Shown: positions 1 through 17,639 of the stretch, in pieces
Position numbering within the stretch: the first letter of the stretch is position 1
How the letters are laid out: the number at the start of each line of letters is the position of its first letter
Assembly: GCA_041649575.1 (NCBI GenBank)
Contig: JBAZMW010000003.1
Span: forward strand, 58,102 to 122,101
Origin: Patescibacteria group bacterium
GTDB taxonomy: Bacteria > Patescibacteriota > Patescibacteriia > 2-01-FULL-39-33
Length of the DNA stretch: 64,000 nt
Direction of reading: 5' to 3'
Translations under genes and position numbers: made by a program
The notes under the pieces: model-generated
Told to the model about the DNA's origin: nothing
Seen by the model: only the letters and a program-made list of their open reading frames with translations
Databases searched by the model: none

Positions 1-11
1 CGATCTGGGCA

Positions 12-1241
12 ATGTTAGGAAAACAGCAAAAGAAATTTTGTTTGATTTTCTGCCAAACACGGACGCAGGCGAAGCAGCACATGATGAATATTCGGGGTGA
101 ACTTGAAGGTAACGACCTCTTAAAGAAAGATTTGGGCCCTTTTCAGGAGCAAAGCGATGAATGGGGTTCATATTCGCTTGTGTTTAACAAAAGCGGCGCC
201 CGTATTACTGTGGCGTCAACTGAACAAAGCATCCGAGGCATTAGGCACAACGAACATCGGCCGGATTTAATAATCTGTGACGACGTTGAAGACGTCCAAT
301 CAACCAAAACTCGCGAGGGCCGGGATAAAACCTACCAATGGCTTTATGGCGAGGTCATGCCCGCTGGAGACCGCAAAACTCGCTTAATAATTGTCGGTAA
401 TCTTTTACATGAAGATTCCCTGCTAATGCGGATTAAAGACGATATCAAAAATAACCGATCAAAAGGTGTCTTTAAACAGTATCCCCTGCTCGACACTAAT
501 GATGTTTGTCTATGGCCCGGGAAATATCCCGAAAAAAAAGACATTGAAGAAGAAAAGCTAAAAATTGCTAGCGAAATATCATGGCAACGTGAATACCTGC
601 TTCGCATTATTCCCAGCGACGATCAGGTTATATACCACGAATGGTTAAATTATTATGACAATTTACCAAGTCAAAAACATATTGCTTATCGGGGCACCTA
701 CGCTGGCGTGGATTTAGCCATTTCAACTGAAGATTCAGCTGATTTTACCACAATCGTTTCAGCGAGAATATATGGCCGGGCGGAAAAATTAAAAATATAT
801 ATTCTTCCAAATCCCATTATGGAAAAATTGAATTTCCCAGCTCAAGTGGAATTAATGAAAAATTTTAAAGCCACGCAAATGCCAAATTATAGTGATACCC
901 TATTTGTCGAAAGTGTCTCATATCAAGAAGCTTTGCCGCAAATGTTAGAGTTAAACGGCGTTGATGCGGAATCAATCAAACCAAAGGGCGATAAACGGAC
1001 ACGGCTTGCCTTAACATCGACATCAATTAAATCCGGCATCATTAAATTTCCACGACATGGTTGTGAGCGGCTAATTGAGCAGTTAGTGGGCTTCGGCGTT
1101 GAAAAGCATGACGATCTGGCCGATGCTTTTTCATTATTAATTAATTCTACTTTAGACAAGCACGCCCATGAATCAACGTGGTATATGGCTTTCCTGGGTG
1201 GTAAAACCTATTATTATCCTGATTACGTTGACGTGGACTAG
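12..1241 (+). CDS. phage terminase large subunit (TerL), N-terminally truncated by window edge
   Basis: Walker-B-like DLIICDDVED followed by an RNase-H-like nuclease region (GVDLAISTEDSADFTTIV ... KHDDLADAF) typical of terminase_6-type TerL; ORF runs off the 5-prime end of the window. Confidence 0.6.
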   Translation: MLGKQQKKFCLIFCQTRTQAKQHMMNIRGELEGNDLLKKDLGPFQEQSDEWGSYSLVFNKSGARITVASTEQSIRGIRHNEHRPDLIICDDVEDVQSTKTREGRDKTYQWLYGEVMPAGDRKTRLIIVGNLLHEDSLLMRIKDDIKNNRSKGVFKQYPLLDTNDVCLWPGKYPEKKDIEEEKLKIASEISWQREYLLRIIPSDDQVIYHEWLNYYDNLPSQKHIAYRGTYAGVDLAISTEDSADFTTIVSARIYGRAEKLKIYILPNPIMEKLNFPAQVELMKNFKATQMPNYSDTLFVESVSYQEALPQMLELNGVDAESIKPKGDKRTRLALTSTSIKSGIIKFPRHGCERLIEQLVGFGVEKHDDLADAFSLLINSTLDKHAHESTWYMAFLGGKTYYYPDYVDVD

Positions 1242-1333: not shown

Positions 1334-2653
1334 ATGGATACCAACCAAATCTCAGCACTTATAGGCAAGCCTGCCATAGTGCCCATAATTAAGGCTAAAT
1401 ACGTCCTGTACGCTCGAAAATCGACCGAACAGGACGAAAGACAAGCCTTATCAATTGAATCTCAGGTCAAAGAAATGCTTGCCATAGCGGAGCGTGAAAA
1501 TCTTGATGTTATCGATATACGGCGTGAAGCCCATTCGGCCAAAGATTCGGGTCAGCGCCCGGTATTTAAAGAAATTTTGGAAGATCTGCGACGAGAGCGA
1601 TTTAACGGCATTTTAGTCTGGCACCCTGATCGCCTAAGCAGAAACGCCGGTGATTTAGGGTCGTTGGTAGATTTAATGGATCAAAGGCTACTAGTCCAAA
1701 TACGTACCTACGGGCAAACTTTCACCAATACGCCAAGCGAGAAATTTTTACTAATGATTTTATGTAGTCAGGCAAAACTGGAAAACGATAATAAAAGCAT
1801 AAACGTAAAGCGTGGCCTAAGGACACGGGTTGAAATGGGGTTATGGCCAGCGACAGCACCGACCGGATATCTCAATGAGAAAAGAATTGACCGAAAAGGT
1901 TATGTTCTCGTTGATCCTGACCGAGCGCCGATTATTAAACAAATGTTTGAAAAAGTCGCCTACGAAAAATGGACTGGCAGAAAATTATACCATTGGCTGA
2001 GATTTGATTTAAATTTCAGAACAGCGGCAGGCGGAAAGCATTTATCGTTGGGCAACATATACGTATTACTACAAAATCATTTTTACTACGGCGTATTTGA
2101 GTACCCGAAAAAAAGTGGCAATTGGTACAATGGCAAACACACTCCAATTATCACCAAGGAGTTATATGACTTGGTTCAAGGACAAGTCAAAAGCCAAATT
2201 ATGAGATCAGAGACTAAGGAGTTTGCGTTTACCAAACTTATAACCTGTGGTTTATGCGGATCAGGGATAACGGCCGATGAAAAATTTAAAAAGCAAAAAG
2301 ATGGCAGCGTCCACCGTCATGTTTATTATAAGTGCACAAAATCAAGAGATAAAGATTGTAAGTGCGGATTTATAAATGAGATTGAATTGTTAAAACAGTT
2401 TGAAAAATTAATCAACAAAGTCAGCATAAATGAAATGGGCATGAAAGAAAAAATTAAATATGAAGTTGAAAGAATTAAAAAATTTCAACAATCCATACTT
2501 GGCGTAAAGCAAGATATTAAAATAAAAGACGTAGACATCCGAGACTACGCCAAATTTATTTTAAAGGATGGATCTGTTGAAGAGAAACGAGAATTACTGA
2601 GTTGTTTTAAAAGCAAAATTACTTTACAAAATAAACAAATTTCCCTTCGCTAA
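1334..2653 (+). CDS. large serine recombinase (phage-type integrase)
   Basis: N-terminal resolvase catalytic domain (YARKSTEQDERQALSIESQ ... HPDRLSRN), recombinase domain and C-terminal Cys-rich zinc ribbon (CGLCGS ... YYKCTKSRDKDCKC). Confidence 0.8.
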   Translation: MDTNQISALIGKPAIVPIIKAKYVLYARKSTEQDERQALSIESQVKEMLAIAERENLDVIDIRREAHSAKDSGQRPVFKEILEDLRRERFNGILVWHPDRLSRNAGDLGSLVDLMDQRLLVQIRTYGQTFTNTPSEKFLLMILCSQAKLENDNKSINVKRGLRTRVEMGLWPATAPTGYLNEKRIDRKGYVLVDPDRAPIIKQMFEKVAYEKWTGRKLYHWLRFDLNFRTAAGGKHLSLGNIYVLLQNHFYYGVFEYPKKSGNWYNGKHTPIITKELYDLVQGQVKSQIMRSETKEFAFTKLITCGLCGSGITADEKFKKQKDGSVHRHVYYKCTKSRDKDCKCGFINEIELLKQFEKLINKVSINEMGMKEKIKYEVERIKKFQQSILGVKQDIKIKDVDIRDYAKFILKDGSVEEKRELLSCFKSKITLQNKQISLR

Positions 2654-2689
2654 ATTAATTCATATTTAAAATATAATATTTCCCACAAA

Positions 2690-3211
2690 TTATCGAAATG
2701 TCCACCCACGTTCTTTTGATAATCCTAATAGATCCAAACATCCAACATTATAAGATGAGTCCTTACAAATATTAGGAATGGTCCATTTTGAGGGTTTAAG
2801 ACTGACCGTATAGCGTTCTTCGGTAATAATTTTTAATCCTTCATGTTTTGCCTGAGCGATTAGCCAAGGATCTGCATGCACTGAACCGATCTTTGCGTTA
2901 ACAAAAGATGAAAATTTTGGTGACATGGTACGTAAAATTTTACCTTCCGCAATTAAATTATAATCCTGAAAAATACTTTTATTTTTTTGTGCCCAATCAT
3001 ACAATTCTATACCTTTCTTACCGTCAGTTTTTATCTCTAATAGAACTTCAACATGAGAAATAATTATTCCCTGTTTAATTAAATCTAAAACATTTGCCCA
3101 AAGTCCCGGAGTAACTTCTTTTGATGACCATCCTGTGCCATTAAAAATATCCATCAATGAACTACTATCGATGGTGTATTCAGCAGGCTTTGAAAAAAGG
3201 TCATTAATCAT
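2690..3211 (-). CDS. PIN-like nuclease-domain protein (DUF4411-like), putative toxin partner
   Basis: N-terminal TIDSSSLMD and C-terminal HADPWLIAQAKHEGLKIITEE fit PIN-domain acidic motifs; about 170 aa; start overlaps the stop of the upstream ImmA/IrrE-HTH gene (3204..3211). Confidence 0.5.
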   Translation of the reverse strand: MINDLFSKPAEYTIDSSSLMDIFNGTGWSSKEVTPGLWANVLDLIKQGIIISHVEVLLEIKTDGKKGIELYDWAQKNKSIFQDYNLIAEGKILRTMSPKFSSFVNAKIGSVHADPWLIAQAKHEGLKIITEERYTVSLKPSKWTIPNICKDSSYNVGCLDLLGLSKERGWTFR

Positions 3212-4394
3212 AGGAATTTAAAACATCTCTAAATCCAGAAATATACCTTCTTTTTAAACCAAGATAATCAGAGACTGTTGAGTAAGAAATTTTATTGTGA
3301 CTATAGGCCTCAATCACTAAAGAGCTAAAAGATTTTCCATTTTTTTGAACAATTGTTTTTAATGAAAAACTGCCACCCGCTTTTCGTTTTGGCATTAATG
3401 ATTTATCCCAAGTTTCAACTTTATCTAAATATATTGATTTTTCAATCAACTTAAAAAATAACATTCTCCTCAATATAACCACTCTACTAACCTTAAAATC
3501 TATGGCTAATTTTCTGACAATCGAATCAAGATCGTCCGAACTAATCTTATTAATATTTCGTAACAAATAATGATTTAAAAAATCATCCTCGGGAACTAAA
3601 AAATTTGCTGCGAATTTATTACAAAATATTTCGACTTTATTAACGTGACCGTCAACATCATCAAATATTTTAAAATTATTACATAATCCAGTCTCACGTA
3701 ATAAAATATGTGCAAACTCATGAGCTAAAGAAAAATTTTTAGCACCCTCATAGTCTTTATTATTTATTAAAATCACATATGGCTTTAAATCAGCGAAAGA
3801 AAAAGCCCTATAGTCCTCCGTGGGGAAAGTATCGTGCAGAACCGCCTTTAAAGTGATCACTCCCGTTGCTTCAATCTTTGACCTAAGGTACTCAAAAAAA
3901 TCTTCATATTTTTTAAACTTAAATTGATCATTTGCGGAAATTGACAATTCGGATCTAATTTTATTGGCTAAGTGCTCGGGATTCTGATCAAGTGTGTATT
4001 TCGGATATTTAAATATTGGTTTTTCTCCCAATTCTTCATAGAGGCTTACTGCTGTCTCCTGTATCTTCCTTGCTTTTCTTATAGCTAGTAAGCCTTTTGG
4101 AGAAATGTCAAAATTATCTTTCGAACCAATAGTTCTGAAATCCGGCAAACTAATCTTCTCTTCAGGTGAATGAGCAAGAAAAAAAACCGCCAATGGGCGT
4201 TTGTATATTTCAGCGAGTTTTTTAATATCTCTAAAAGTGGGCTGAGTCTCACCAGATTCCCACCTTTTTATTGTATCTACTGAGACTTCTTTCCAAGATT
4301 TTCTAAGTTGGGTGGTCAAATTTTCTAAATTAGCACCAAAACTTATTTCTCTTGCCCACTTCAATATTTTTGGTTCAAATATTAAATTTTCCAT
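3204..4394 (-). CDS. HTH (XRE) + ImmA/IrrE family zinc metallopeptidase
   Basis: N-terminal XRE-type HTH (TQLRKSWKEVSVDTIKRWESGETQPTFRDIKKLAEIY) and HEXXH motif (SLAHEFAHILLRE) typical of COG2856/DUF955 peptidases. Confidence 0.75.
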   Translation of the reverse strand: MENLIFEPKILKWAREISFGANLENLTTQLRKSWKEVSVDTIKRWESGETQPTFRDIKKLAEIYKRPLAVFFLAHSPEEKISLPDFRTIGSKDNFDISPKGLLAIRKARKIQETAVSLYEELGEKPIFKYPKYTLDQNPEHLANKIRSELSISANDQFKFKKYEDFFEYLRSKIEATGVITLKAVLHDTFPTEDYRAFSFADLKPYVILINNKDYEGAKNFSLAHEFAHILLRETGLCNNFKIFDDVDGHVNKVEIFCNKFAANFLVPEDDFLNHYLLRNINKISSDDLDSIVRKLAIDFKVSRVVILRRMLFFKLIEKSIYLDKVETWDKSLMPKRKAGGSFSLKTIVQKNGKSFSSLVIEAYSHNKISYSTVSDYLGLKRRYISGFRDVLNSYD

Positions 4395-4454
4395 ATAGAG
4401 TTACTCGAAATAATTTTTTCAGGTATTAATTATCATGTTTAATTTTTGAATAAA

Positions 4455-7400
4455 TTATTTTTCTAGATCCTTAACATAAAATTTACCACCTGAAATATCA
4501 AAAAATCTTTCAAAAAATCTGGTTAGTTTATCTAACACATTATCACGCTTCTGTGTTCTTTCGCCAGTTGGAGAAAATCGAGACACGGGTGGCAGTACTT
4601 TTGAAATTGCCGTTCCCGTTGTTGAGACGCCACCGTCCCTAAAAGCGTTCCTTACAAATGCGTACGTAGCGTCGTGATCAAGATTTTCAGTTTTAATAAT
4701 TTTTTCAAGCTCATCAATCTTTTTTTCTTCGACGAATCGTTGCCAATCTTCATCTACAATCGAGTGAACATCAAGCGACGTAATAAATTGATTAATTAGG
4801 TCTTTTTTATTACGCAGCTCAATACTAGAATCAATCGCCTTATTAATATCAATCAAAAGCTCACGATTTTTTATATGGTCTTCATGATATTTCTTAATAA
4901 GTCCTAACACATAATCGATATTTATTTCTACCTGTTTGATAAGCTCCATTTCAAAAACTACGTCGTCGTTAATGTTCTCTTTTTCTTCATCGGCAATCTT
5001 CCTAAACTCGTTATAAAGATCAATGTACATACTATGATAATCTTGCACGTCTCGCTCAGTCAAAATCTCATTACCCGCAAACTCGTCAAACGTGACAAGA
5101 ATATTACGTACACGCAAAATCGCTCCATATAATTTAATGAATTCTTTTTGATTTTGTTCGCCTACAATTCTTTCTCCAACGGTAAACTTTTCCGTCAATT
5201 CTTTTACCAGACTTTCGTATCCACGTATATCCTTATTTTCATATTTATAGCCATAGTAATAATCCTTATAGGCTTTAAGAAGGACTATTCCACTCGCCTC
5301 TTTATCACCAAAGAGTGAGATGGATTCATTTGTTGCTTTTTCTAGATTACGGAAACAAATAATATTTCCAAATGTTTTTACGCTATTTAGAATTCGGTTC
5401 GTTCTTGAATATGCTTGCAATAAACCATGCAAACGTAAATTTTTATCAACCCAAAGAGTATTAAGAGTAGTCGCATCAAATCCAGTTAAAAACATATTGA
5501 CTACAATAAGAATATCAATTTCTCGATTTTTAACTCGCTCACTTACATCTTTATAGTAATTTTGGAACTTGTCAGAAGATGTATCATAAGAGGTTCCAAA
5601 CATTGCGTTATAATCTATAATTGCACTATCTAAAAAATCTCTTGAGCTAGCGTCAAGCTCGCTTGTATCCTCAGAGTTTTCATCAATCATTCCATCTGCA
5701 TCTTCATCGTTCACTCCAAAACTATAGATAGTGGCTATCTTGAGACGCTTATCACTGGGTACCTCGGCTAACTGTTTTTTAAATTCAGCATAATATTTCT
5801 TTGCCACATCAATAGAGGAAACGGCAAAGATTGAGTTAAATCCTGCTAGCCTCCGGTCTTTAAGTTTATAGAAACTATTACGTTTTGTTTTTTGATCAAA
5901 ATGATCACAAATATATCGAACAATATTCCCTATACGTTCCGGTGCGGCAAGAACTGCCTCACGATCGATATCGCTCACTTTTTTATCTTCAATATTTTCG
6001 GCTTCACGGACAGTAGATACATAGTCCACTTTGAAAGGCAAAACATTCCTATCTGCGATTGCGTCAACAATCGTGTAAGTATGTAATTTATCACCAAAAG
6101 CCTGTTCGGTTGTTTTCAAATCAGGGCGACCACCAGAAGAAGCATTTACGGCAAAAATTGGAGTGCCAGTGAACCCAAAAATGTGGTAATTATTAAATGC
6201 TTTTATAATCGCCGCATGCATGTCGCCAAATTGGGAACGGTGACATTCATCAAAAATCAATACAACGTGGCCGTCAAAAATAGTATGTTCTCCATTACGA
6301 CTAATAAATCGATCCAATTTTTGAATAGTAGTAATAATGATACGTGTATTTGGGTTTTCAAGTTGTTTTTTAAGAACAGAGGTACTCGTGTTACTGTTTG
6401 CGGCACCTTTCTCAAACTTGTCATATTCACGCATAGTCTGATAATCCAAATCTTTACGATCAACAACGAACAAAACTTTGTCTATATAAGATACTTTGCT
6501 TATGAGCTGCGCCGTTTTAAAACTCGTCAGGGTTTTCCCCGATCCTGTTGTGTGCCAAATATATCCACCCGCTTCAACCGTGCCAAGCTTTTTATAGTTT
6601 GTACTTACTTCGATTCGACTCAAAATTCTTTCCGTAGCTACTATTTGATATGGCCGCATCACAAGGAGTAAGCGGTCGGTCGTAAATACACAATACTTAG
6701 TCAGAATATTCAAAAGCGTATGCTTTGCGAAAAAGGTCTTCGCAAAATCCATAAGATCAGTAATGGGACGATTTGTTGCATCTGCCCACCAGCTGGTAAA
6801 TTCAAAACTGTTGCTTGTTCTTTTACCTTTTTTTAATCCGCCCTCGTTTGCTTCTTTAATATGTTCAGAGCGAGTTGTATTGCTGTAGTATTTAGTATGT
6901 GTTCCATTTGAAATAACAAACAGCTGTACATATTCAAAAAGACCAGAAGAAGCCCAAAAACTTTCTTTCTGGTAACGATTAATCTGATTAAAAGCCTCTT
7001 GAATCGCGACACCGCGACGTTTAAGTTCTATGTGAACAATTGGCAAACCATTTACAAGCACCGTTACGTCGTACCGGTTAGCACGCTTACCATTCTCAGT
7101 CGCATATTGATTTATAACTTGAAGATAATTGTCATGAATATTATCTTTTTTTATAAGATAAATATTCTTTGTTGACCCATCGTCACGAGTCAAATTCTTT
7201 ACATGATCTTCTTGAACTGTAGCCGTCTTTTCTTCAATACTTTGATTTGGATTAGCAAGTTCACTCGCAAAAAAATGTTCCCATTCATTGTCAGTAAAAA
7301 TAAATCCATTAAGTTTTTCTAATTGTTTGCGTAAGTTGAGAATGAGATCATTTTCTGAAGTAATCGCAATGTATTCATAAGCCTGAGTTTCTAATTGTTT

Positions 7401-7529
7401 AATAAAGGCCTTTTCAAGTTCTGCCTCGCTTTGATAGTGCGCGACTCTTTTAGCATCAGGAATATACTCCGCGACAACCGTGCTTTGGGTACTCTCCGCA
7501 ACTAAGTTGTATTTTTTCTTAACTAACAT
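4455..7529 (-). CDS. hsdR: type I restriction enzyme R subunit (HsdR)
   Basis: SF2 helicase motifs I (TTGSGKTLT) and II (LIFDECHRS); size 1024 aa; immediately downstream of hsdS/hsdM on the same strand. Confidence 0.9.
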   Translation of the reverse strand: MLVKKKYNLVAESTQSTVVAEYIPDAKRVAHYQSEAELEKAFIKQLETQAYEYIAITSENDLILNLRKQLEKLNGFIFTDNEWEHFFASELANPNQSIEEKTATVQEDHVKNLTRDDGSTKNIYLIKKDNIHDNYLQVINQYATENGKRANRYDVTVLVNGLPIVHIELKRRGVAIQEAFNQINRYQKESFWASSGLFEYVQLFVISNGTHTKYYSNTTRSEHIKEANEGGLKKGKRTSNSFEFTSWWADATNRPITDLMDFAKTFFAKHTLLNILTKYCVFTTDRLLLVMRPYQIVATERILSRIEVSTNYKKLGTVEAGGYIWHTTGSGKTLTSFKTAQLISKVSYIDKVLFVVDRKDLDYQTMREYDKFEKGAANSNTSTSVLKKQLENPNTRIIITTIQKLDRFISRNGEHTIFDGHVVLIFDECHRSQFGDMHAAIIKAFNNYHIFGFTGTPIFAVNASSGGRPDLKTTEQAFGDKLHTYTIVDAIADRNVLPFKVDYVSTVREAENIEDKKVSDIDREAVLAAPERIGNIVRYICDHFDQKTKRNSFYKLKDRRLAGFNSIFAVSSIDVAKKYYAEFKKQLAEVPSDKRLKIATIYSFGVNDEDADGMIDENSEDTSELDASSRDFLDSAIIDYNAMFGTSYDTSSDKFQNYYKDVSERVKNREIDILIVVNMFLTGFDATTLNTLWVDKNLRLHGLLQAYSRTNRILNSVKTFGNIICFRNLEKATNESISLFGDKEASGIVLLKAYKDYYYGYKYENKDIRGYESLVKELTEKFTVGERIVGEQNQKEFIKLYGAILRVRNILVTFDEFAGNEILTERDVQDYHSMYIDLYNEFRKIADEEKENINDDVVFEMELIKQVEINIDYVLGLIKKYHEDHIKNRELLIDINKAIDSSIELRNKKDLINQFITSLDVHSIVDEDWQRFVEEKKIDELEKIIKTENLDHDATYAFVRNAFRDGGVSTTGTAISKVLPPVSRFSPTGERTQKRDNVLDKLTRFFERFFDISGGKFYVKDLEK

Positions 7530-8781
7530 ATTGATTAAAAGTTAAAAGTTTATTTCGGTAGTATTCATATTGACACCTGCGTGCAGAAAGCTCTGCAGGC
7601 AAACCGATTGATATATCGTTCAAAAGTGCGTCAAACTTATCTAAAATTTCCACGATGCGATTTTGTTCCTCAATCGGCGGGGTTGGGATTTTGAATTTTG
7701 TGAATTCCTCTTTTGTAATTGTTTTTATCGTGCTTCCACGAGCCGTTTCTTTTTCAACAGAAAATTTTCTTTCAAGCTGATATGCGAAATACTTCTTATT
7801 GATATTTACCTTAAACCTCTCAAAAATTGCAAGGGTGCGATCAACATAACTGTCATATTGAGTGATAGCGACTCGACCGATACTTCCCTGCAAAGTTACT
7901 ATAACTGTTCCAGCAGGCACAAAAACACTTTTGGGTTGAGCTAATCTTGAAATTTTTTGTTTTGTATTTTCAACAAGTTGCATATTTTTACCAACATCTG
8001 CGACTTGAACAAATGGCATTGCGCCTTCTCCGCCATACCATCTACTTTCACCATAAGGCTGTGGAAAAGAACCGCGACGATAATCTGCTATTTCACCCAA
8101 CGTTTTCCATTGCACCTCATTGCCTTCAAATCCTAAAAGCTGATTACGATAATACCCATATTGCATCTCTCTCGCCTCCAGCTCCGCCTCCAGCTCCGCC
8201 TCCAGCTCCGTAAATCTATTAAGAATTTTAGCAATTTCTTTTTGTATTTCAAGTGGCGGAAGAGGAATTTTAAACTTTTTAAATCCACTCATATCTACAG
8301 AAGAAAAACTTGACGTTGTTGTATTATTTCGACACCACTCATCCAATAAGTAACAGTAATAGTAGACAAATCGCATGTCGAATTTATCTGCATATTCTGG
8401 CTTTAGGACAAGCGAATTAAACCTCTGATTTGCAAGATGTGGAACTGTAATTAGTGCGTGTTCACCAATAGTAGCAGACGTCGTGATAATAATAGAATTT
8501 GCGGGAAATAGTCTACCGCCTTTCACAGCAATTTCAGGAATGTGCTGAACTGAATCATCTAGTATGTGCCCATTCTCTCTAATATCTTCCATGCGGAACC
8601 AAGGAATGTTGCCACCCGCCCAATATTCTGGTTTTGCCTTTGATGGTGTGTAGCCGTTTTTAATATCAAAAATTTCTACTAAGTCCCTAAACTCCACTCC
8701 GTTCGGGCATAACTTGGCAATTAGCTGTTCAATTTTATTTATAGGTTTAGTCATGCTATTTTTTTCTTTCAATATCGGCAA
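7519..8781 (-). CDS. hsdS: type I restriction-modification specificity subunit (HsdS)
   Basis: two target-recognition-domain halves with duplicated conserved regions (LEAREMQYGYYRNQLLGF / LSARRCQYEYYRNKLLTF); central ELEAELEAELEA repeat. Confidence 0.85.
   Translation of the reverse strand: MPILKEKNSMTKPINKIEQLIAKLCPNGVEFRDLVEIFDIKNGYTPSKAKPEYWAGGNIPWFRMEDIRENGHILDDSVQHIPEIAVKGGRLFPANSIIITTSATIGEHALITVPHLANQRFNSLVLKPEYADKFDMRFVYYYCYLLDEWCRNNTTTSSFSSVDMSGFKKFKIPLPPLEIQKEIAKILNRFTELEAELEAELEAREMQYGYYRNQLLGFEGNEVQWKTLGEIADYRRGSFPQPYGESRWYGGEGAMPFVQVADVGKNMQLVENTKQKISRLAQPKSVFVPAGTVIVTLQGSIGRVAITQYDSYVDRTLAIFERFKVNINKKYFAYQLERKFSVEKETARGSTIKTITKEEFTKFKIPTPPIEEQNRIVEILDKFDALLNDISIGLPAELSARRCQYEYYRNKLLTFNQYVS
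8164..8199 (-). repeat. 3 x 12-bp tandem repeat (gcctccagctcc) encoding (ELEA)3 in the HsdS central conserved region
   Basis: three perfect tandem copies seen directly in the sequence. Confidence 0.9.
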
Positions 8782-10345
8782 CTATTTCATCAATAGAGGC
8801 ACGGAGCTCATTCTGTCTTGCGACTATTTTGGTAATCTTTTTATTAAGTTCCACAATGTCCACTACTTCGCGAGTATCTTCTCCTACAACATAGCCTGAT
8901 ACAGCAATATTATAATCATTCTCTGCAATGACTTTATTATCAATGAGTTTTGCAAAATACTTCGTATCTCTACGAGCGCTGAATGCTTCTAAAATCTTTA
9001 AACGATTTGTCTCGCTTAATTTATTTTTATTGCCACCATGAACAAACTCGGCAGAGGCATCTATAAAAAGTGTTTTATTATCTTTCTTGCTCTTTTTAAG
9101 CACGATGATGCAAGTGGCAATAGATGTACCGAAAAAAAGATTGGGCGGTAATTGTATAACAGCATCAACATAATTATTATCTACAAGATATTTTCTAATC
9201 TTCTGTTCTGCACCACTACGATAAAGAACACCAGGAAATTCAACAATCGCCGCAGTTCCATTCGTCGATAACCATGAAAGCATGTGCATAGTGAAGGCAA
9301 GATCAGCATAACTCTTTGGCGCCAATACTCCTGCCGGAGAAAAGCGCGGATCATTTATTAGGATAGGGTTTGCGTCGCCATCCCAGTGAATTGAATACGG
9401 TGGATTAGAAACAATAGCATCAAATGGCTCATCATCCCAATGCTTCGGGTCGACGAGAGTATCACCGTGTGCAATATCAAAATGATTATAATTAATATCA
9501 TGCAGGAACATGTTAATGCGACAAAGGTTGTAGATAGTAAGGTTGATTTCTTGCCCAAAAAACCCTTGCCTAACATTTTCTTTCCCTAAAACCTTAACAA
9601 ATTTAAGAAGCAAAGATCCAGAACCGCAAGCAGGATCGTAAACCTTATTAACTTCCTTTTTGCCAACGGTTGTAATTTCAGCGAGAAGCTCACTGACTTC
9701 CTGTGGTGTAAAAAATTCACCACCTGATTTTCCTGCATTTGCGGCATACATAGTCATCAAAAATTCATATGCGTCACCGAAGGCATCTATAGTGTTATCG
9801 GAGTAATTTCCGAGCTTAAGATCACCGATTGATTCAAAAAGTTTTGTGAGTTTATGGTTTCTTTTTTCTACCGTGTTTCCAAGTTTATTGGAGTTTACAT
9901 CAAGATCATCAAACAAACCCTTAATGTCATCCTCACTGTTTGCGCCTTTCGCAGAATTTTCAATATTACGAAAAACGGCAGTAAGAGTTTCATTAAGGTT
10001 AGCGTCATTTCGAGCATTTTTTCTAACATTTATAAAAAGCTCACTTGGTAAGATGTAAAAACCTTTTTCTTTGACTGTATCAGCTCGACCGAATTCGGCT
10101 TCTTTATTGGAAAGTGTAGCGTAGTCAAAATCCTTATTACCAGCACGGCGTTCATCAGCATTGATATAGTTGGTAAGGTTTTCGCTAATAAAGCGATAAA
10201 AAAGTATCCCAAGCACATACTGCTTGAAATCCCAGCCATCAACACTTCCACGTAAGTCATTTGCAATCTGCCAAATAGCACGGTGCAATTCTGAACGCTC
10301 CTGTTCTTTAGTTGTGTTCAAATTTTTATCTTTGATGTTAGCCAT
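8756..10345 (-). CDS. hsdM: type I R-M N6-adenine DNA methyltransferase (HsdM)
   Basis: motif I DPACGSGSLL and motif IV VSNPPYS; HsdM N-terminal domain; overlaps hsdS start. Confidence 0.9.
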   Translation of the reverse strand: MANIKDKNLNTTKEQERSELHRAIWQIANDLRGSVDGWDFKQYVLGILFYRFISENLTNYINADERRAGNKDFDYATLSNKEAEFGRADTVKEKGFYILPSELFINVRKNARNDANLNETLTAVFRNIENSAKGANSEDDIKGLFDDLDVNSNKLGNTVEKRNHKLTKLFESIGDLKLGNYSDNTIDAFGDAYEFLMTMYAANAGKSGGEFFTPQEVSELLAEITTVGKKEVNKVYDPACGSGSLLLKFVKVLGKENVRQGFFGQEINLTIYNLCRINMFLHDINYNHFDIAHGDTLVDPKHWDDEPFDAIVSNPPYSIHWDGDANPILINDPRFSPAGVLAPKSYADLAFTMHMLSWLSTNGTAAIVEFPGVLYRSGAEQKIRKYLVDNNYVDAVIQLPPNLFFGTSIATCIIVLKKSKKDNKTLFIDASAEFVHGGNKNKLSETNRLKILEAFSARRDTKYFAKLIDNKVIAENDYNIAVSGYVVGEDTREVVDIVELNKKITKIVARQNELRASIDEIVADIERKK

Positions 10346-10349
10346 AAGA

Positions 10350-10556
10350 TTATTTTAATAATTCGTCAACTGATACGTCTAAGGCTTCAGCAATTCGTTC
10401 CATGGTCGCTAAGGTTGGATTCTTCTTACCGCTTTCAACATTACTAAGATAGGCACGATCAAGTCCCAACTTTCTGCATAAGTCGCCTTGTGTCATACCC
10501 TTTTCCTCTCTGATTCTACGGACATTAATGCCTAATTTTCTTGATGAATTTGTCAT
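10350..10556 (-). CDS. XRE-family HTH transcriptional regulator (possible controller protein of the R-M operon)
   Basis: 68-aa HTH_XRE (MTQGDLCRKLGLDRAYLSNVESGKKNPTLATMERIAEAL) 4 bp upstream of hsdM. Confidence 0.7.
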   Translation of the reverse strand: MTNSSRKLGINVRRIREEKGMTQGDLCRKLGLDRAYLSNVESGKKNPTLATMERIAEALDVSVDELLK

Positions 10557-10570
10557 AATACTGCCTTACT

Positions 10571-10601
10571 ATTATATCACATTAATTGTATTTTAGTACA
10601 A
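10571..10601 (-). promoter_or_regulatory. candidate promoter of the XRE-hsdMSR operon (TTGTAC ... extended -10 TGaTATAAT)
   Basis: read on the minus strand: ttgtac, 19-nt spacer, tgatataat about 15 nt upstream of the XRE start; the spacer is longer than optimal. Confidence 0.4.
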
Positions 10602-10617
10602 TAGCCTAAAAAACACA

Positions 10618-10641
10618 AAACCGCCCCTTTGGACGGTTTCA
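10618..10641 (-). terminator. hairpin (aaaccg ... cggttt) followed on the minus strand by a U-run; likely terminator of the tRNA-Trp transcript
   Basis: 6-bp stem with 10-nt loop, then ttttgtgtttttt on the minus strand. Confidence 0.45.
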
Positions 10642-10714
10642 TGGATCGAAGCATTGTCGTATTTGAAGCACGCTTCGATAGCTTCGAAAGTAACGAAGTC
10701 GTGCTAGCACGATT

Positions 10715-10787
10715 TGGCAGGGGATGTAGGAATCGAACCCACGCATGCGGTTTTGGAGACCGCCGTACTACCACTATACGAATCCCC
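10715..10787 (-). tRNA. tRNA-Trp (anticodon CCA)
   Basis: manual fold: acceptor GGGGATT, D arm, anticodon stem GCGGT/ACCGC with loop CTCCAAA, T arm GGTTCGATTCC; 73 nt; 3-prime CCA encoded. Confidence 0.8.
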
Positions 10788-11023
10788 CAAATTAACAGTT
10801 AACTATCAATACTTAATAATTAACTGTTAAAAGATTATTTAGTTTCCTTGTGTGGAGTGTGTTTCTGACAATGCCGGCAGTATTTTTTCATCTCCAATCG
10901 ATTTTTGAGCAGCTTTTTGTTTTTTCTAGAAAAATAATTGACGCGTTTGCAGACAGTGCACTCCATTTTAATCATGTTGTCTTGGGACATAAAAATATCT
11001 TATTATTTTTTAACTAATTTATT

Positions 11024-11096
11024 TAGCCGGCTCTCGGATTCGAACCGAGGACCTACGGTTTACAAAACCGTTGCTCTACCACTGAGCCAAGCCGGC
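11024..11096 (-). tRNA. tRNA-Thr (anticodon TGT)
   Basis: manual fold: acceptor GCCGGCT/AGCCGGC, D arm GCTCAGTGGTAGAGC, anticodon stem ACGGT/ACCGT with loop TTTGTAA, T arm GGTTCGAATCC. Confidence 0.8.
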
Positions 11097-11286
11097 GCGT
11101 CAGGCGGGCGGGCGAAATCGTTGCTCTGTCAGTTGAACTACGTTGGCTCTAGACCAACCCTGGCTGACCCGTTAATTTAACTGGTTTATAAATCAAAATG
11201 CGATTTTATTCTAACATAAAAAACTCGATTTTACAATAATCTTAGCTATTTACAATTTTTATCTAAAATAAGAATGTTTTTAAACC

Positions 11287-11315
11287 TTGACAAAATAAAA
11301 ATTAAATTATATAAT
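11287..11315 (+). promoter_or_regulatory. perfect consensus sigma70-type promoter TTGACA-N17-TATAAT
   Basis: ttgaca (11287-11292), 17-nt spacer, tataat (11310-11315); followed by a leader hairpin caggcttcaaaaagcctg and RBS GGGGAGG before the ATG at 11404. Confidence 0.6.
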
Positions 11316-11403
11316 AATATATGCTCTTTATAATTTGGATTTTGATAGTCTAATCCGAGGACAATAATTCAGGCTTCAAAAAGCCTGGGGGAGGATAAGT
11401 TAG

Positions 11404-13008
11404 ATGCAAGCAATACTGGAAGCGATCGAAACCGGCCTAGTAAGGGGCTGTGGAATATCCCTGACCGAGGCGATGAGTTCGCCACGATTCGTAAAGCTGC
11501 TGGCGAGGCAAAAGACCCTCTTTGAGCGTTACCCTAAGGACACTCACCGAGGAATCGCCCTAAGAGCCGGACATCTGGTCATGGGCCAGTTACTCAACAC
11601 CATGCCGGAATCGAAAGCTTTAGCCCAAGCTCGACGGATCAAAACACCGAAGTTCGGCTGCGGTATTGAGCTGCGCGCGCTGATCCAATTCTTTGGCGAA
11701 GCGCTAATTGTCGAAGCTGGCAAGTGCCTGCCAGACGAAGTGCTTGAATTGGCCAAGGAGTGGAGAGCGGCCACGGCGGAGAGACAGATTGAAATAGTCC
11801 GAGAACTATTCTTCATCTTTCGGTCGAAGAAACAAGGCGATGACCAAGAGATCATGACCCTCGCTCACGCTGAGCAAGATCTTATCCGTAAGGCCATGGA
11901 AAAGTGGAATCGAGGGTCTGACGCGCGAGATGTTTTACCAAGACTCTATGGCAAGTGGGACAGTAATTGTCCGGCTAACTGTCAGGGTAAGACGCAATTG
12001 CTAGTCGCCTTCGCGCACCTCGCCGGAACCAAGGCAATGGTTGTCAACGCTCTAAGCGACGGAGTACATGAGCTGTGGCGGTTAAGGGGTGAGTTGGCCG
12101 ACGCCATCTCTCAAGACATCAGACGGCGCGGCCTAGGCGGAGTCAGCTCGGAATTTGATGACAGCCTGGCTGGTCATCATTTCGCCGAGATTTTCAGGGA
12201 AAAGATTCGGGACTTCCATGTCGGTACGGCTTTGAGGCTAGGCGACGGGCGCTGGATCCTAATCGACCCGCACGCTCTTGCCTGGGGAGTTTTCTCTCCG
12301 CGCTGGCAGATGAACGAAACTCACCGACTGCTCCGAAAATACGCTGAAGTTTTGCCCGGACTGACGTTAACCCGCGATGATGGCGGAGAGGTCACGGACA
12401 AAATCAAGGCTAGGGCCGAAGTGTCTTACGACTTGATCGAGCGGTCGCGAAAGCTCGAGATTTTGCTTCGCGAACAGGTTCACTCCATGTCAGACTTCAT
12501 CGACATCGTTAAGGACTCAGAAGATTTCGATTTGCTGATGCGCCTCAACGCCGAACATGAAAGAACGACTTTTGTCCCATGGACCGATCCGAAGATAAGG
12601 TTTCTCGGCGTCGCTTCTGTGGTAGCCGGTGGAATGGACAAGCTCCATGACTTTCGGGCCATGATAGACCCAAAGTACCTAGAGCAACAAATAAAGTTGT
12701 GGCTATCATTCTACCACTGCGTGGCGGCCAATCACTTAGCGAACCAACTGGGTGACAATGGCGAGTTGGTCCATCTGGTTTGCGAGTTCAACGCCAGCCC
12801 GGAATACTATTTGGCACTGTCGGCGACCAACAGCATCATCGTGCGAGAAGATGAAGAGTCGGAATCGTTCTTCATTGATTACGGTTTCGACCAGCTCACT
12901 CTTTATAACACGATGATCCGGCGAAAGGAAGCGGCGGTCGCGGCGGCGGAGGTCGTCAAAACTCTGCCGTTTGTGCATGAGAATATGCGCACCAGATTTG
13001 GAATCTAA
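11404..13008 (+). CDS. hypothetical protein encoded in a GC-rich island (possible transglutaminase-like Cys-His-Asp core; speculative)
   Basis: 534-aa ORF in a region of about 56% GC with a strong RBS; NCQGKTQLLVAFAHLAG, HHFAEIF and GRWILIDPH loosely resemble the C/H/D motifs of transglutaminase-like cysteine peptidases. Confidence 0.55.
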   Translation: MQAILEAIETGLVRGCGISLTEAMSSPRFVKLLARQKTLFERYPKDTHRGIALRAGHLVMGQLLNTMPESKALAQARRIKTPKFGCGIELRALIQFFGEALIVEAGKCLPDEVLELAKEWRAATAERQIEIVRELFFIFRSKKQGDDQEIMTLAHAEQDLIRKAMEKWNRGSDARDVLPRLYGKWDSNCPANCQGKTQLLVAFAHLAGTKAMVVNALSDGVHELWRLRGELADAISQDIRRRGLGGVSSEFDDSLAGHHFAEIFREKIRDFHVGTALRLGDGRWILIDPHALAWGVFSPRWQMNETHRLLRKYAEVLPGLTLTRDDGGEVTDKIKARAEVSYDLIERSRKLEILLREQVHSMSDFIDIVKDSEDFDLLMRLNAEHERTTFVPWTDPKIRFLGVASVVAGGMDKLHDFRAMIDPKYLEQQIKLWLSFYHCVAANHLANQLGDNGELVHLVCEFNASPEYYLALSATNSIIVREDEESESFFIDYGFDQLTLYNTMIRRKEAAVAAAEVVKTLPFVHENMRTRFGI

Positions 13009-13431: not shown

Positions 13432-16194
13432 TTATTCCTTCTCCCCCCTTCTAACATCAACCTTGCCTTTTTCGTCAAAAACAATCACGTCCCGGCGGGA
13501 CAAACGTTTTTGTAAAATATAGTTGGCTAAAACATCATCGACTTTCTCCTGAATCACCCGGCGCAATGGTCGGGCGCCAAAAACCGGGTCGAAGCCGGCG
13601 ACGGACAGCTCTTCAATAAAAGAATCCGTGGCCTCCAGACCCAAACCGCGCTCCTCCAAAGTCTTGGCCACCCTAAGCAGCATCAGCCGGGCAATGCTCT
13701 TTACTTCCTCCCTGGTTAAAGGTTTGAAGATAATAATACCGTCAAAACGGTTAAGAAATTCCGGACGAAAATAAGCCAATAATTTATCATTGACCAAATC
13801 GTCTTTAACCGATTCCACCTCCTTGCCGGCGCGAACCTGCTCTTGAATAAAAGGAGTGCAAGCATTGGAAGTGGCGATAATAATGGTGTTGGTAAAATCA
13901 ATCAGCCGGCCGCGGCCATCGGTCAAACGGCCGTCATCCATCACCTGCAAAAAAATATTTAAGATGTTAAGATCGGCTTTTTCTATCTCGTCCAACAAAA
14001 CCAGGGAAAAGGGATTTTTTCTAACCGCTTCGGTCAAATGGCCCGGAGAATCCTCGGTGCCGATCAACCGATTAAGACTGGCCGTCTCCTGGTATTCTGA
14101 CATATCCAGGCGAATCATGTTTTTCTCATTGCCGAAATAAACTTCGGCCACGGCTTTGGCCAGCTCGGTCTTGCCGACACCAGTCGGACCCAAAAACATC
14201 AGATTGGTAATTGGGCGCTTGGTGCTTCTAAGTTCGGTACGAGCACGGCGCAAAGCGGTGGAGACCATTTTAACCGCTTCGTTCTGGCCAACAATACGCT
14301 CGTGAATACGCGCTTCCAGATTTAATAGTTTTTCGCTTTCTTCCTGGGTGACTTCGGTGGCCGGTATGTTGGTAAGCTGGGAAATTATTTCGGCCACATC
14401 CTCGCCGGTGACCACCGTCCTCTTGCCTCTGGTTTTGCTGGCCATGGTAGCCGCTTCCTCCAAAACGCTAATCGCTTTGCTGGGCAGAAATTTGTCATGA
14501 ATAAAGCGGCTGGACAAATCAACGGCTTTTTCTATAGCTTCGTAGGTCAGAAAAACCCGATTGCTGTATTCGATTATTCCTGATTTTAGTTCCAAAACTT
14601 GAATCGCGCCGTCGCGGCTGACTTCCGGCACCTTAACCAGCTTGAAAACATCGTTTAAAACATTGTTGCCTTCAATGTATCTGCCATAGTCTCCGACCGT
14701 GGCGGTGGTAAAGCACAAAAAGTTGCCATTTAGCAGATATTTGGCGAAAATTTCCGAAAGATCCAGACTCTCTTCTTCGCCGGTGGTGATGCCAATCAAT
14801 TCTCTGATATTCTCCACCACCAAAATGATATTTTTAGCGCGAATAATTTCCTCCATCACTCTGATTAACCGTTCTTGAGCCTTGTCGGGCGTGGTGCCGC
14901 CAATCAAACTGGCGATATTCAAACTCATTAAGCGCTTGTCCTGCATGCTTTGGGGCACCTCCTCGGTCACCATTTTTTGGGCGATGCCCTCTATAATCGC
15001 CGATTTACCCACCCCGGGCTCGCCAACTAAAATGACATTACGCTGGCCGCCGCTCTCAATCGCGCGAAAAATTTCTTCTAGTTCCTTATCGCGGCCAATG
15101 CAAGGGACAAAATAGCCGTATTTGGCCAAAGTGGTCAAATTCTGGCTGAAATGATCCAAAAATGGCGTGGCCAAAGCCGTCATGGCTCGATCGATATCGC
15201 CCCTGGGCTTAAAACGCGAGGCCGACCTGAAATGCAACCAGTTTTCCATTAAAATCTGCTGGAAACCCTGCCACATGACGACATTATTGATTTTATTCAA
15301 ATCGGCTTCAAAATCATACATGATATTAGAGACGGTTTCATCGAGCTGGCAAGCGACATAAAACAAATCTATTACCTCCACTCGATGACGATTTTGTAAA
15401 TAGGCATTTTGATAAGCCCCGAGTAGAATTTTTCTAATCTTTAAAGAAATACCGGTCTTTTGACCGACTGGTAACTTGGCTAAAGCTTTAGCTAGTTTTT
15501 CTTCCAGTAGTTCCCGGCTGATGCCCAGACGACCAATAATCAAGGCGACTTTAGAAAATGACAAGAGCGAGGCCAATAGGTGAACCGGCTCGATCTCATG
15601 ATGTTTTAATTTCCTGGCCAATAAATAAGAACGGTTCACGGCCAGCCAAGCATCGTGGACATAGGAAAAAGAGACGTCGATTTTTCTTTTTTTGTCTAAT
15701 TGTTTGAAAAAAGAAAAATTACCAATCCTTTCACTGGCCAATAAATTGTCATCGGCCGATTGGTATTTTTTTTCTTTGATCTTTTTCTGCCGGTCGGCCT
15801 CGCGGCTCAAACGATAAAAAAGATAGAGGTCGGTTACCAGACTTAGCCAAAAAACAGAAGCCCAAAAACCCTCCAAAAACAACAGATTGGTCTGAGGCGA
15901 CAGCGGGCTAGTTCCCCAAATCAGCCGCAGCTGCCAAATCAGAGAAATAATACCAACAGCTCCAAAAACCCAAAGCAGACTGTTTATAATTATTTTAAAA
16001 ATGTTTCGGATCTGATTTTCTAAAACCGCCGAAGAGTTTATGCTTTTGCCCCAAAACAACAAAACGTCGCCCAGCCACAGGCCAAGCGAGCGTCCTTGGC
16101 AGACAGGACACGGCGCTCCGTTTACTTCTCCCCTGCCTTGGCAAGAAGAGCAAAGTAAATAATCCAATTTTTTTTCGTTTGTTTTAGCCGACAT
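13432..16194 (-). CDS. ClpA/ClpC/ClpE-family double AAA+ ATPase with N-terminal zinc ribbon and predicted transmembrane helices
   Basis: two Walker A boxes (GEPGVGKSAI, GPTGVGKTELAKAVA), the DMSEY ... LVLLDEIEKA ... QVMDDGRLTD signature of AAA-2, and a short middle region with no long ClpB-type coiled coil. The N-terminus has CSSC-x10-CPVC and two or three hydrophobic helices. Confidence 0.85.
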   Translation of the reverse strand: MSAKTNEKKLDYLLCSSCQGRGEVNGAPCPVCQGRSLGLWLGDVLLFWGKSINSSAVLENQIRNIFKIIINSLLWVFGAVGIISLIWQLRLIWGTSPLSPQTNLLFLEGFWASVFWLSLVTDLYLFYRLSREADRQKKIKEKKYQSADDNLLASERIGNFSFFKQLDKKRKIDVSFSYVHDAWLAVNRSYLLARKLKHHEIEPVHLLASLLSFSKVALIIGRLGISRELLEEKLAKALAKLPVGQKTGISLKIRKILLGAYQNAYLQNRHRVEVIDLFYVACQLDETVSNIMYDFEADLNKINNVVMWQGFQQILMENWLHFRSASRFKPRGDIDRAMTALATPFLDHFSQNLTTLAKYGYFVPCIGRDKELEEIFRAIESGGQRNVILVGEPGVGKSAIIEGIAQKMVTEEVPQSMQDKRLMSLNIASLIGGTTPDKAQERLIRVMEEIIRAKNIILVVENIRELIGITTGEEESLDLSEIFAKYLLNGNFLCFTTATVGDYGRYIEGNNVLNDVFKLVKVPEVSRDGAIQVLELKSGIIEYSNRVFLTYEAIEKAVDLSSRFIHDKFLPSKAISVLEEAATMASKTRGKRTVVTGEDVAEIISQLTNIPATEVTQEESEKLLNLEARIHERIVGQNEAVKMVSTALRRARTELRSTKRPITNLMFLGPTGVGKTELAKAVAEVYFGNEKNMIRLDMSEYQETASLNRLIGTEDSPGHLTEAVRKNPFSLVLLDEIEKADLNILNIFLQVMDDGRLTDGRGRLIDFTNTIIIATSNACTPFIQEQVRAGKEVESVKDDLVNDKLLAYFRPEFLNRFDGIIIFKPLTREEVKSIARLMLLRVAKTLEERGLGLEATDSFIEELSVAGFDPVFGARPLRRVIQEKVDDVLANYILQKRLSRRDVIVFDEKGKVDVRRGEKE

Positions 16195-16204
16195 TTAAAA
16201 TAGC

Positions 16205-16570
16205 TTAAAATAATAAAGTTATAAATTTATAGACAACCATCAGAGGCAGGGCTAGCCAGCCCAGAAATAAACAAAAAATTAAAAGCGCCCAAATTGCCAG
16301 CGCCAGGGCGCGAAAAACAATTTGGACCAAACGCATGAAAAAACTGATTAGCCGACCCTGCCAATCGGTTTGGCTGTACATCGGCTGGAAAAGATTGACA
16401 AGCCAAACGCGGACGCCGATAGTTCTTTCACCGTTTAAAAATTTTTGCCAGAAAAACAGACCGGTTTTTTTGGCGCCGACGGTGTACCACCAAAAAGGGA
16501 AATAAACCGCGTCCAAAAACACCTCCAGAAAAACTGATTTAATTGGGCCTAAAACAATGCCTTTGAGCAT
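16205..16570 (-). CDS. hypothetical membrane protein
   Basis: 121-aa ORF with hydrophobic helices; no recognisable motif. Confidence 0.35.
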   Translation of the reverse strand: MLKGIVLGPIKSVFLEVFLDAVYFPFWWYTVGAKKTGLFFWQKFLNGERTIGVRVWLVNLFQPMYSQTDWQGRLISFFMRLVQIVFRALALAIWALLIFCLFLGWLALPLMVVYKFITLLF

Positions 16571-17623: not shown

Positions 17624-17639
17624 AATAATTCCTTTAAGT

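Follow-up and report, generated by a model that had tools for sequence, protein, structure and literature searches.

A gene for a DUF4411 protein lying downstream of a gene for a fused helix-turn-helix (HTH) and DUF955 (COG2856) protein is an arrangement that was predicted in 2009 and again in 2017, when it was catalogued as subfamily DUF4411.1, and for which a self-cleaving protease model was proposed (Makarova 2009, PMC2701414; Matelska 2017, PMC5499597). A link between this class and phage defence followed in 2022-2023, and the exact family was solved and characterised in 2026, as VapBC52 (Rv2515c/Rv2514c) of Mycobacterium tuberculosis (Singh et al., NAR June 2026, PMC13273310). Here we describe such a pair, a 396-aa HTH and peptidase protein and a 173-aa DUF4411 protein, in a 64,000-nt stretch of DNA from a Patescibacteria group bacterium (positions 58,102 to 122,101 of the forward strand of contig JBAZMW010000003.1, assembly GCA_041649575.1). 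We refer to this whole stretch as the window, and all positions are counted from its first letter. We propose, with a probability of roughly 0.8, that the pair forms a type II toxin-antitoxin module of the VapBC52 type, and we call the larger protein the antitoxin and the smaller one the toxin throughout.

In the M. tuberculosis system, the DUF4411 protein, VapC52, is a growth-inhibitory toxin, a PIN tRNase whose cuts fall in anticodon or variable loops, and the peptidase protein, VapB52, neutralises it by binding the toxin dimer 1:2 via its N- and C-terminal domains (Singh et al., 2026). Residues D6, E48, D99 and E117 of VapC52 were mutated, and PIN-domain mutants were reported no longer to cleave tRNA. 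In VapB52, H216, H220 and E245 are zinc ligands and C229 acts as a "cysteine switch"; single-stranded DNA (ssDNA) triggers self-cleavage of the N-terminal domain, a mutant with H216A/H220A does not cleave, and the cut is proposed, though not mapped, to fall at an FR motif in the linker. VapC52 also cleaves the tRNAs of phage D29, and its over-expression protects M. smegmatis (Singh et al., 2026).

The homology of the window pair to VapBC52 spans both proteins. A sequence search of the PDB returned entry 9VZY, in which a 393-aa "HTH cro/C1-type domain protein" (three chains) is found with a 162-aa "DUF4411 family protein" (six chains); entry 9VZZ contains the DUF4411 protein, VapC52, alone. The antitoxin aligns with VapB52 (9vzy_A) over essentially its full length, with an E-value of 1.5e-27 from the single sequence (aa 7-383 against 3-378) and 1.2e-67 from a profile, at 28% identity over 390 aa; the toxin, a DUF4411 PIN protein like its counterpart, aligns with VapC52 (9vzy_D/9vzz_A) with E-values of 2.2e-4 and 2.9e-15, respectively, at 27% identity over 172 aa. 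All residues called functional in VapBC52 are kept here, namely the four PIN-domain acids, the zinc site, the switch cysteine and the FR motif (Table 1; the mapping was verified by counting along the alignments). The spacing of the zinc site is nearly the same as in VapB52, with identical +4 and +9 positions and the glutamate at +26 rather than +25. The two-gene architecture and gene order are also identical. Given the full-length homology, the retention of the functional residues and the near-identical zinc-site spacing, the pair belongs, by its sequence, to the VapBC52 family, of which it is a remote yet complete representative. It differs in its host, a Patescibacteria metagenome-assembled genome (MAG) rather than an actinobacterium, and in being appended to a type I restriction-modification (R-M) operon on a recombinase- and phage-associated island; a term search of the VapBC52 paper finds no "genomic island" and only incidental mentions of "restriction" and "prophage" (PMC13273310).

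An initial annotation of the sequence had described a 173-aa PIN-like protein of the DUF4411 type and a 396-aa protein with an XRE HTH and a HEXXH zinc-peptidase domain, and had named Pfam searches as a check; all three of the families it listed (DUF4411, Peptidase_M78 and HTH_3) are matched. The toxin covers the whole DUF4411 profile (PF14367; aa 12-172, profile 1-159 of 159, E = 6.7e-20). Its AlphaFold2 model, built with 25 homologues, is confident, with a predicted local distance difference test (pLDDT) score of 89.6 and a predicted template-modelling (TM) score (pTM) of 0.85, and a Foldseek search of the PDB gives nothing but VapC/PIN toxins in its first ~45 ranks, mostly with target-normalised TM scores of 0.53-0.68. 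The absence of a PIN-like fold, which would have spoken against the proposal, was thus not what we found. D15, E59, D114 and E132, the predicted catalytic acids, are invariant among the 25 homologues. A toxin of identical sequence has been recorded in a Patescibacteria MAG. Clustered at 50% identity, the DUF4411 toxin family falls into about 3,000 groups.

The antitoxin matches HTH_3 at aa 37-70 (E = 6.4e-8) and Peptidase_M78 at aa 189-311 (E = 1.2e-15), with a HEFAH motif at aa 225-229. Its AlphaFold2 model (pLDDT 88.4, pTM 0.88) consists of an N-terminal five-helix XRE-type domain (aa ~5-72), a linker, an alpha/beta peptidase and helical middle domain, and a helical C-terminal third. The linker (aa ~75-98) is poorly ordered and has the lowest confidence of the model, with pLDDT of 62-68 and below 50 at aa 89-92. 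Across 38 antitoxin homologues there is no variation at H225, E226, H229, E255, D85 or R87, and at least 90% of them keep C238. The nearest folds found by Foldseek in the PDB are CapP (7t5t), IrrE (3dti), PprI (8sln) and PrpR (6cz6). Two other 396-aa open reading frames (ORFs) in the window are unrelated to the antitoxin and can be dismissed as duplicates of it. The domain assignments at the locus are significant family matches on intact ORFs, and not chance.

By homology to VapBC52, we propose that the toxin is a metal-dependent PIN endoribonuclease, probably a growth-inhibitory tRNase cutting anticodon or variable loops. The XRE-like N-terminal domain and the helical C-terminal domain of the antitoxin would clamp a toxin dimer, one antitoxin to two toxins, and block its active site, while C238, positioned on the catalytic zinc, would keep the central M78 peptidase inactive. 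Displacement of the cysteine loop by ssDNA, formed when DNA is damaged or when a phage replicates, would allow the peptidase to cut off its own N-terminal domain at the FR motif, F86-R87; the complex would then fall apart, and the freed nuclease would arrest translation. The same homology suggests that the pair can act as an abortive-infection defence. The island would stack two layers, type I R-M and toxin-antitoxin, for defence and/or self-stabilisation. The role in the cell is less certain than the molecular class; abortive infection and stabilisation of the island and its R-M genes are both compatible with the proposed mechanism, and do not exclude each other. The locus had been put forward as an uncharacterised abortive-infection module: its placement in the toxin-antitoxin and abortive-infection class is borne out by the homology to VapBC52, whereas the word "uncharacterised" no longer applies, since the VapBC52 work appeared in June 2026 and predictions of the architecture date from 2009 and 2017.

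Table 1. Coordinates of the toxin-antitoxin pair, its functional residues and its neighbours in the window.
Feature	Position	Strand	Remarks
VapC52-like DUF4411 PIN-domain toxin gene	2690..3211	minus	intact ORF, 173 aa
VapB52-like antitoxin/sensor gene	3204..4394	minus	intact ORF, 396 aa
Antitoxin stop / toxin start overlap	3204..3211	minus	8 nt, ATGATTAA, read in the sequence
Toxin D15	3167-3169	minus	predicted catalytic acid; aligned with VapC52 D6
Toxin E59	3035-3037	minus	predicted catalytic acid; aligned with VapC52 E48
Toxin D114	2870-2872	minus	predicted catalytic acid; aligned with VapC52 D99
Toxin E132	2816-2818	minus	predicted catalytic acid; aligned with VapC52 E117
Antitoxin zinc site	3630..3722	minus	contains the three features below
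Antitoxin H225-E226-x-x-H229	3708-3722	minus	zinc ligands H225, H229; aligned with VapB52 H216, H220
Antitoxin C238	3681-3683	minus	putative cysteine switch; aligned with VapB52 C229
Antitoxin E255	3630-3632	minus	third zinc ligand; aligned with VapB52 E245
Antitoxin F86-R87 (FR motif)	4134..4139	minus	predicted self-cleavage site in linker from N-terminal domain to peptidase; aligned with F75-R76 in VapB52 DFR
Spacer, hsdR stop to antitoxin start	4395..4454	minus	60 nt
hsdR, type I restriction subunit	4455..7529	minus	1024 aa; Pfam HSDR_N, SWI2_SNF2/ResIII, T1R_D3-like, EcoR124_C; PADLOC REase_I, 1156 bits
hsdS, specificity subunit	7519..8781	minus	420 aa; PADLOC Specificity_I, E = 1.8e-117, full length
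hsdM, methyltransferase subunit	8756..10345	minus	529 aa; PADLOC MTase_I, E = 3.5e-125
XRE-family HTH gene	10350..10556	minus	68 aa; Pfam HTH_3, E = 4.2e-19; 4 nt upstream of hsdM
Large serine recombinase	1334..2653	plus	439 aa; Pfam Resolvase, Recombinase, Zn_ribbon_recom; PHROG integrase, E = 1.9e-60
Phage terminase large subunit, C-terminal part	3..1241	plus	PHROG phrog_38, E = 5e-56, profile 331-707 of 760
tRNA-Trp	10715..10788	minus	ARAGORN
rpmG	10835-10990		Ribosomal_L33, E = 3.4e-17
tRNA-Thr	11025-11096		ARAGORN

We asked how constant the pair is among relatives by surveying genomes, metagenomes and viral contigs, which supplied 41 loci where the antitoxin has a strong match. By script, a DUF4411 gene lies directly downstream of the antitoxin gene in 35 of the 41 loci, and in about 38 of 40 when contig ends and one ORF-start artefact are allowed for; in all 35 related-locus pairs the distance between the two genes is -35 to +11 nt. 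Pairwise identities of antitoxins and toxins across 31 loci are tightly correlated (r = 0.93), a value reached by 0 of 2000 permutations in a Mantel test. Full-length antitoxin homologues occur on 59 plasmids, and on those inspected, RefSeq labels "ImmA/IrrE" or "XRE" stand beside "DUF4411 family protein". Related pairs are also carried by prophages and by integrative elements with relaxase or coupling-protein genes. A scan of IMG/VR with the toxin alignment returned nothing with the peptide patterns chosen; a scan with the antitoxin alignment returned 56 viral loci, 15 of them with DUF4411 downstream. In two phage contigs the pair lies among tail genes: in L029 it separates the tail chaperone from the tape measure, and in L026 the tape measure from the tail fibre; these are moron positions, and not those of a lysogeny switch. 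The pair is an autonomous, mobile two-gene module.

Most relatives appear to carry a promoter of their own. A -10-like hexamer, TATAAT or TATACT, ends 6-7 nt before the antitoxin start in several loci (L002, L004, L014, L015, L016, L021 and L022), and is preceded by TGC in four loci; this position suggests a leaderless transcript from the pair's own promoter. Where the pair is found inside a type III operon (L024), an AGGAGG Shine-Dalgarno sequence precedes the antitoxin gene in place of the -10 box. No conserved operator-like inverted repeat is shared among 19 regions upstream of the antitoxin gene, from 18 related loci and the window. Within a few kb of related pairs there are genes of defence type, encoding a Cap15-like effector, a PycTM-domain protein and an AbiEii toxin (L021, 11080-11685; L022, 7716-8252; L014, 5187-5819), neighbours that are consistent with defence-island cargo.

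In the window, the genes are co-oriented in the order xre-hsdM-hsdS-hsdR-antitoxin-toxin, from 10556 down to 2690, xre being the 68-aa gene. HsdM, HsdS and HsdR are all present and matched over their full length by Pfam and PADLOC, making a complete type I R-M system, so that the pair does stand directly downstream of an intact hsdR on the same strand, as the initial annotation had it. The overlap of the antitoxin stop and toxin start that it had also placed at 3204-3211 is confirmed as eight shared nt, ATGATTAA, and points to translational coupling of the two genes. It had further placed a prophage integrase 40 bp beyond the pair. The distance is about right, at 36 nt, whereas the gene encodes a large serine recombinase and lies on the opposite strand, convergent with the pair; given its strand, it is adjacent to the pair without being co-transcribed with it. 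The recombinase gene is preceded by that for the terminase, whose reading frame is open from base 3 to the window edge.

Neither a terminator-like hairpin nor a convincing -10 box or Shine-Dalgarno sequence is present in the spacer between hsdR and the antitoxin gene. A weak promoter-like site, TTGATA-17-TATGTT, is found at 4501-4473, within the end of hsdR; a scan of 2400-11500 gave 34 promoter-like sites against 32 expected from shuffling. Because the pair is on the same strand as hsdR, with a 60-nt spacer free of any terminator-like hairpin, co-transcription with hsdR is plausible. At the other end of the operon, the 68-aa XRE protein is possibly the controller of the R-M genes. Just upstream of its gene, a promoter-like TTGTAC...TATAAT and a short TTGTA/TACAA palindrome can be read by eye. 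There is no small XRE gene beside the pair in the related loci examined, and a three-component model in which the 68-aa protein is the substrate of the protease is unsupported, as such a gene accompanies the pair nowhere else examined.

The block of R-M and toxin-antitoxin genes is set apart from its surroundings by composition. The G+C fraction is 0.30-0.39 over 2500-11000 and 0.38-0.45 over 1-2000, at the terminase and recombinase end. Past 11500 it is 0.42-0.58, apart from a single 500-nt stretch at 16.5-17 kb where it falls to 0.35. The tRNA-Trp, rpmG and tRNA-Thr genes mark a housekeeping flank, and the right edge of the low-G+C island lies at ~10560-10714. The block looks like recently acquired cargo within or beside a prophage-like element. 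We infer, rather than observe, that a prophage-like integrative element has inserted beside tRNA-Trp and carries the pair and R-M genes as cargo at its recombinase-proximal end, because the far end of the element lies outside the window.

Placement in an R-M operon recurs among relatives of the pair. In four loci, the pair is within or at the end of R-M operons that are not orthologous: the window; an Adlerbacteria MAG (L006, 2479-10498) with the order hsdM-hsdS-hsdR-pair, in which hsdR is of a different type I family from that of the window; a viral contig (L030, 5635-13891) with the order hsdM-pair-hsdS-hsdR followed by a tyrosine integrase, and with a terminase upstream; and a Thermodesulfobacteriota MAG (L024, 7301-13194), in which the pair lies between type III mod and res. 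The pairs in L006, L030 and L024 are only 31-36% (antitoxin) and 27-42% (toxin) identical to that of the window, and given this low identity they look like independent insertions. Methyltransferase or Mrr-type genes are immediate divergent neighbours of the pair in two further loci. A conserved operon with type I R-M can be rejected as a general rule, with R-M genes as same-strand neighbours in only four of ~33 distinct loci. It has been noted before that PIN toxins are occasionally coupled to type I R-M subunits (Matelska 2017, PMC5499597).

A second association, with large serine recombinases, is confined largely to close relatives, by which we mean those with an antitoxin at least 49% identical to that of the window. 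A large serine recombinase gene lies within 8 kb of the pair in 10 of the 10 close relatives with enough flanking DNA (L001, L002, L003, L014, L015, L016, L021, L022, L023 and the window), at distances from 12 bp to ~7.3 kb, and near the pair in only two of ~21 distant relatives. The orientation of these recombinase genes varies, as does their relatedness (E-values of 1e-26 to 1e-174), and the recombinase-linked pairs are on at least four kinds of element, including phage-like, relaxase- or coupling-protein-bearing, and primase-bearing ones. Near-orthologues of the window recombinase (E ~1e-170) adjoin the pair in the Patescibacteria loci L001, L002 and L006. The linkage in the close relatives suggests that recombinase-borne cassettes cross phyla, Patescibacteria, Acidobacteriota and others among them. 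We found no published report of linkage between the pair and recombinases, although no systematic literature search was made for one; both the R-M embedding and the recombinase linkage go beyond the literature that we found.

A pair so closely bound to mobile DNA could serve mainly as an addiction module that stabilises the island and its R-M cargo by post-segregational killing, with no real role against phage. This would involve the mechanism that we favour, and would differ in biological role only. Related pairs are nearly always on mobile DNA, whether the 59 plasmids, the elements with relaxase or coupling-protein genes or the prophages; the recombinase is present in every assessable close relative; and a compositionally foreign island would gain from stabilisation in a small genome. 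Nonetheless, an antitoxin that senses ssDNA and cleaves itself would be an odd design for the plain sensing of loss, defence neighbours are frequent (R-M, AbiEii, the Cap15-like and PycTM-domain proteins, Mrr), and VapC52 cleaves phage tRNAs and protects against D29 (PMC13273310). We therefore regard a purely addictive role as unlikely, although well short of negligible.

A different role for the antitoxin is suggested by its closest solved folds besides VapB52, which are those of the regulators CapP, IrrE and PprI. Together with the XRE-type HTH in its N-terminal domain, these folds could mean that the 396-aa protein is mainly a DNA-damage transcription switch of the CapH/CapP or ImmR/ImmA type, controlling the R-M genes, the recombinase or prophage induction, with the PIN protein an accessory. 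The pair adjoins an integrase-type gene and a phage terminase, a separate XRE gene heads the R-M operon, and a DISARM operon headed by a CapH-CapP fusion plus a vapC-like gene is known. We consider such a switch quite improbable. The neighbours of the pair vary between loci whereas its DUF4411 partner is constant; there is neither a conserved operator-like repeat upstream nor a separate conserved repressor; the recombinase is on the other strand, and elsewhere its distance and orientation vary; the antitoxin model lacks the GAF domain of CapP; and the N-terminal domain of VapB52 binds toxin (PMC13273310). A switch of lysogeny in particular we reject, given the position of pairs among the tail genes of phage contigs, outside the lysogeny module, and their placement inside R-M operons. 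Conservation of the pair only as an ImmA-type regulator of prophage induction, which the initial annotation had named as grounds for abandoning its proposal, is likewise disfavoured by the tail-gene, plasmid and R-M-operon locations, and by the growth inhibition caused by the M. tuberculosis toxin homologue.

Several points weigh against a VapBC52-type defence module. Identity to VapBC52 is only 27-28%, so that substrate choice, trigger and stoichiometry may differ. In the M. tuberculosis work, protection came from the toxin over-expressed alone and was lost upon co-expression of the antitoxin (PMC13273310), so that defence by a native pair is for now a prediction in any host. The Patescibacteria member is described here from sequence and models, and its toxin has no PADLOC model. 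Lastly, in a different Xre-peptidase system, PD-lambda-2, the Xre-peptidase fusion PD-lambda-2B is toxic alone, and the window pair could be of this sort, with a toxic peptidase protein neutralised by the DUF4411 protein; we give such a reversal of roles, or a decaying remnant, almost no weight, since both ORFs are intact, the catalytic and regulatory residues are all conserved, and in the direct homologue, VapBC52, toxicity comes from the DUF4411 protein and neutralisation from the peptidase protein (PMC13273310).

Farther into the window, beyond the housekeeping flank, there are other features. A 534-aa ORF (11404-13008, plus strand; G+C 51-56%) directly follows the tRNA cluster and is matched by neither Pfam nor PHROG. 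A complete diversity-generating retroelement occupies 16604-19310 on the minus strand, with a reverse transcriptase at 16604-17683 (RVT_1, E = 1.3e-27; phrog_1423, E = 2e-104), a template repeat at 18048-18155 and a variable repeat at 18606-18713, the latter at the 3' end of a 242-aa target ORF (18582-19310). The two repeats, of 108 nt each, are mismatched at 21 positions, and at 20 of these the template copy has an adenine. A 132-aa ORF (18159-18557) is in the position of an accessory gene and has no Pfam match. Directly downstream of the reverse transcriptase gene on the same strand, at 13432-16570, are a gene for a 920-aa double-AAA+ protein resembling ClpB (AAA_2, ClpB_D2-small) and a 121-aa ORF that carries no annotation.

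The pair described here does not overturn current understanding; the window contributes a Patescibacteria member, and a clear R-M-appended example, of a known family. "DUF4411 + XRE/ImmA" pairs, many of which are labelled only in this way in RefSeq, can now be read as putative VapBC52-type tRNase toxin-antitoxin modules, and such modules are likely to go uncalled by PADLOC 2.0, which has no model for the toxin. An ultra-small Patescibacteria genome would carry a suicide module sensing ssDNA, stacked on type I R-M in a mobile, low-G+C island.

Among the systems described so far, the HTH-DUF955 and PIN systems of the 2009 and 2017 predictions have exactly the arrangement found in the window; those were predictions only, and they list no Patescibacteria case and do not report an association with recombinases. 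RosmerTA (RmrT/RmrA; Millman 2022; Ernits 2023, PMC10440598) is alike in pairing a toxin gene with an antitoxin that has an HTH and an ImmA-type zinc peptidase, and the pair had been called Rosmer-like. This holds for the antitoxin, which matches 13 RmrA models of PADLOC with E-values of 5.9e-15 to 3.3e-8, and a 14th with an E-value of 0.003, at partial to near-full coverage; it also matches capP models of PADLOC, at about 1e-15. It does not hold for the toxin, which matches no PADLOC family at E <= 0.01, the RmrT models included. The function of the original RosmerTA toxin is unknown, and RmrT (D5) of the Gordonia phage Kita depolarises membranes and has no similarity to other families that could be detected (Ernits 2023, PMC10440598). 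Links between ImmA and PIN proteins were noted by NetFlax. CapH/CapP, IrrE/DdrO and ImmR/ImmA share the M78 peptidase fold with the antitoxin, and CapP also has a cysteine-switch loop and is activated by ssDNA. Unlike the window pair, in which protease and proposed substrate are one chain and the proposed output is the release of a bound nuclease, these proteases cut a separate repressor to switch genes on. The pair departs from CapH/CapP in that protease and HTH are one fused protein, the sole separate XRE gene stands 6 kb off, at the head of the R-M operon, and the C-terminal third is all helical, and from ImmR/ImmA in that related pairs lie among phage tail genes or inside R-M operons, and at variable distances and orientations from recombinases.

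The R-M setting brings to mind PrrC, a latent tRNA-cutting suicide nuclease encoded within the EcoprrI type I R-M cluster, where it provides a second line of defence; it is an anticodon nuclease of ABC-ATPase-like type, silenced by the R-M complex itself. Pairs in the window and in L006, L030 and L024 are similarly found between or after R-M subunit genes. This repeated placement might reflect functional coupling, in which DNA ends or ssDNA generated by restriction trip the ssDNA-sensing antitoxin, and the tRNase is a restriction-triggered second line; alternatively, the ssDNA signal may reach the antitoxin when restriction is overwhelmed and phage replication proceeds. We think coupling improbable, if worth keeping in view. 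If it were true, it would be PrrC-like logic built of unrelated parts, and the recombinase linkage of the close clade would mark defence cassettes moving together across phyla, Patescibacteria included. The four R-M-embedded examples would be a handy setting in which to look for restriction and abortive infection working together. The pair differs from PrrC in that the proteins are unrelated, a dedicated antitoxin would do the silencing, and no physical link to the R-M enzyme is indicated.

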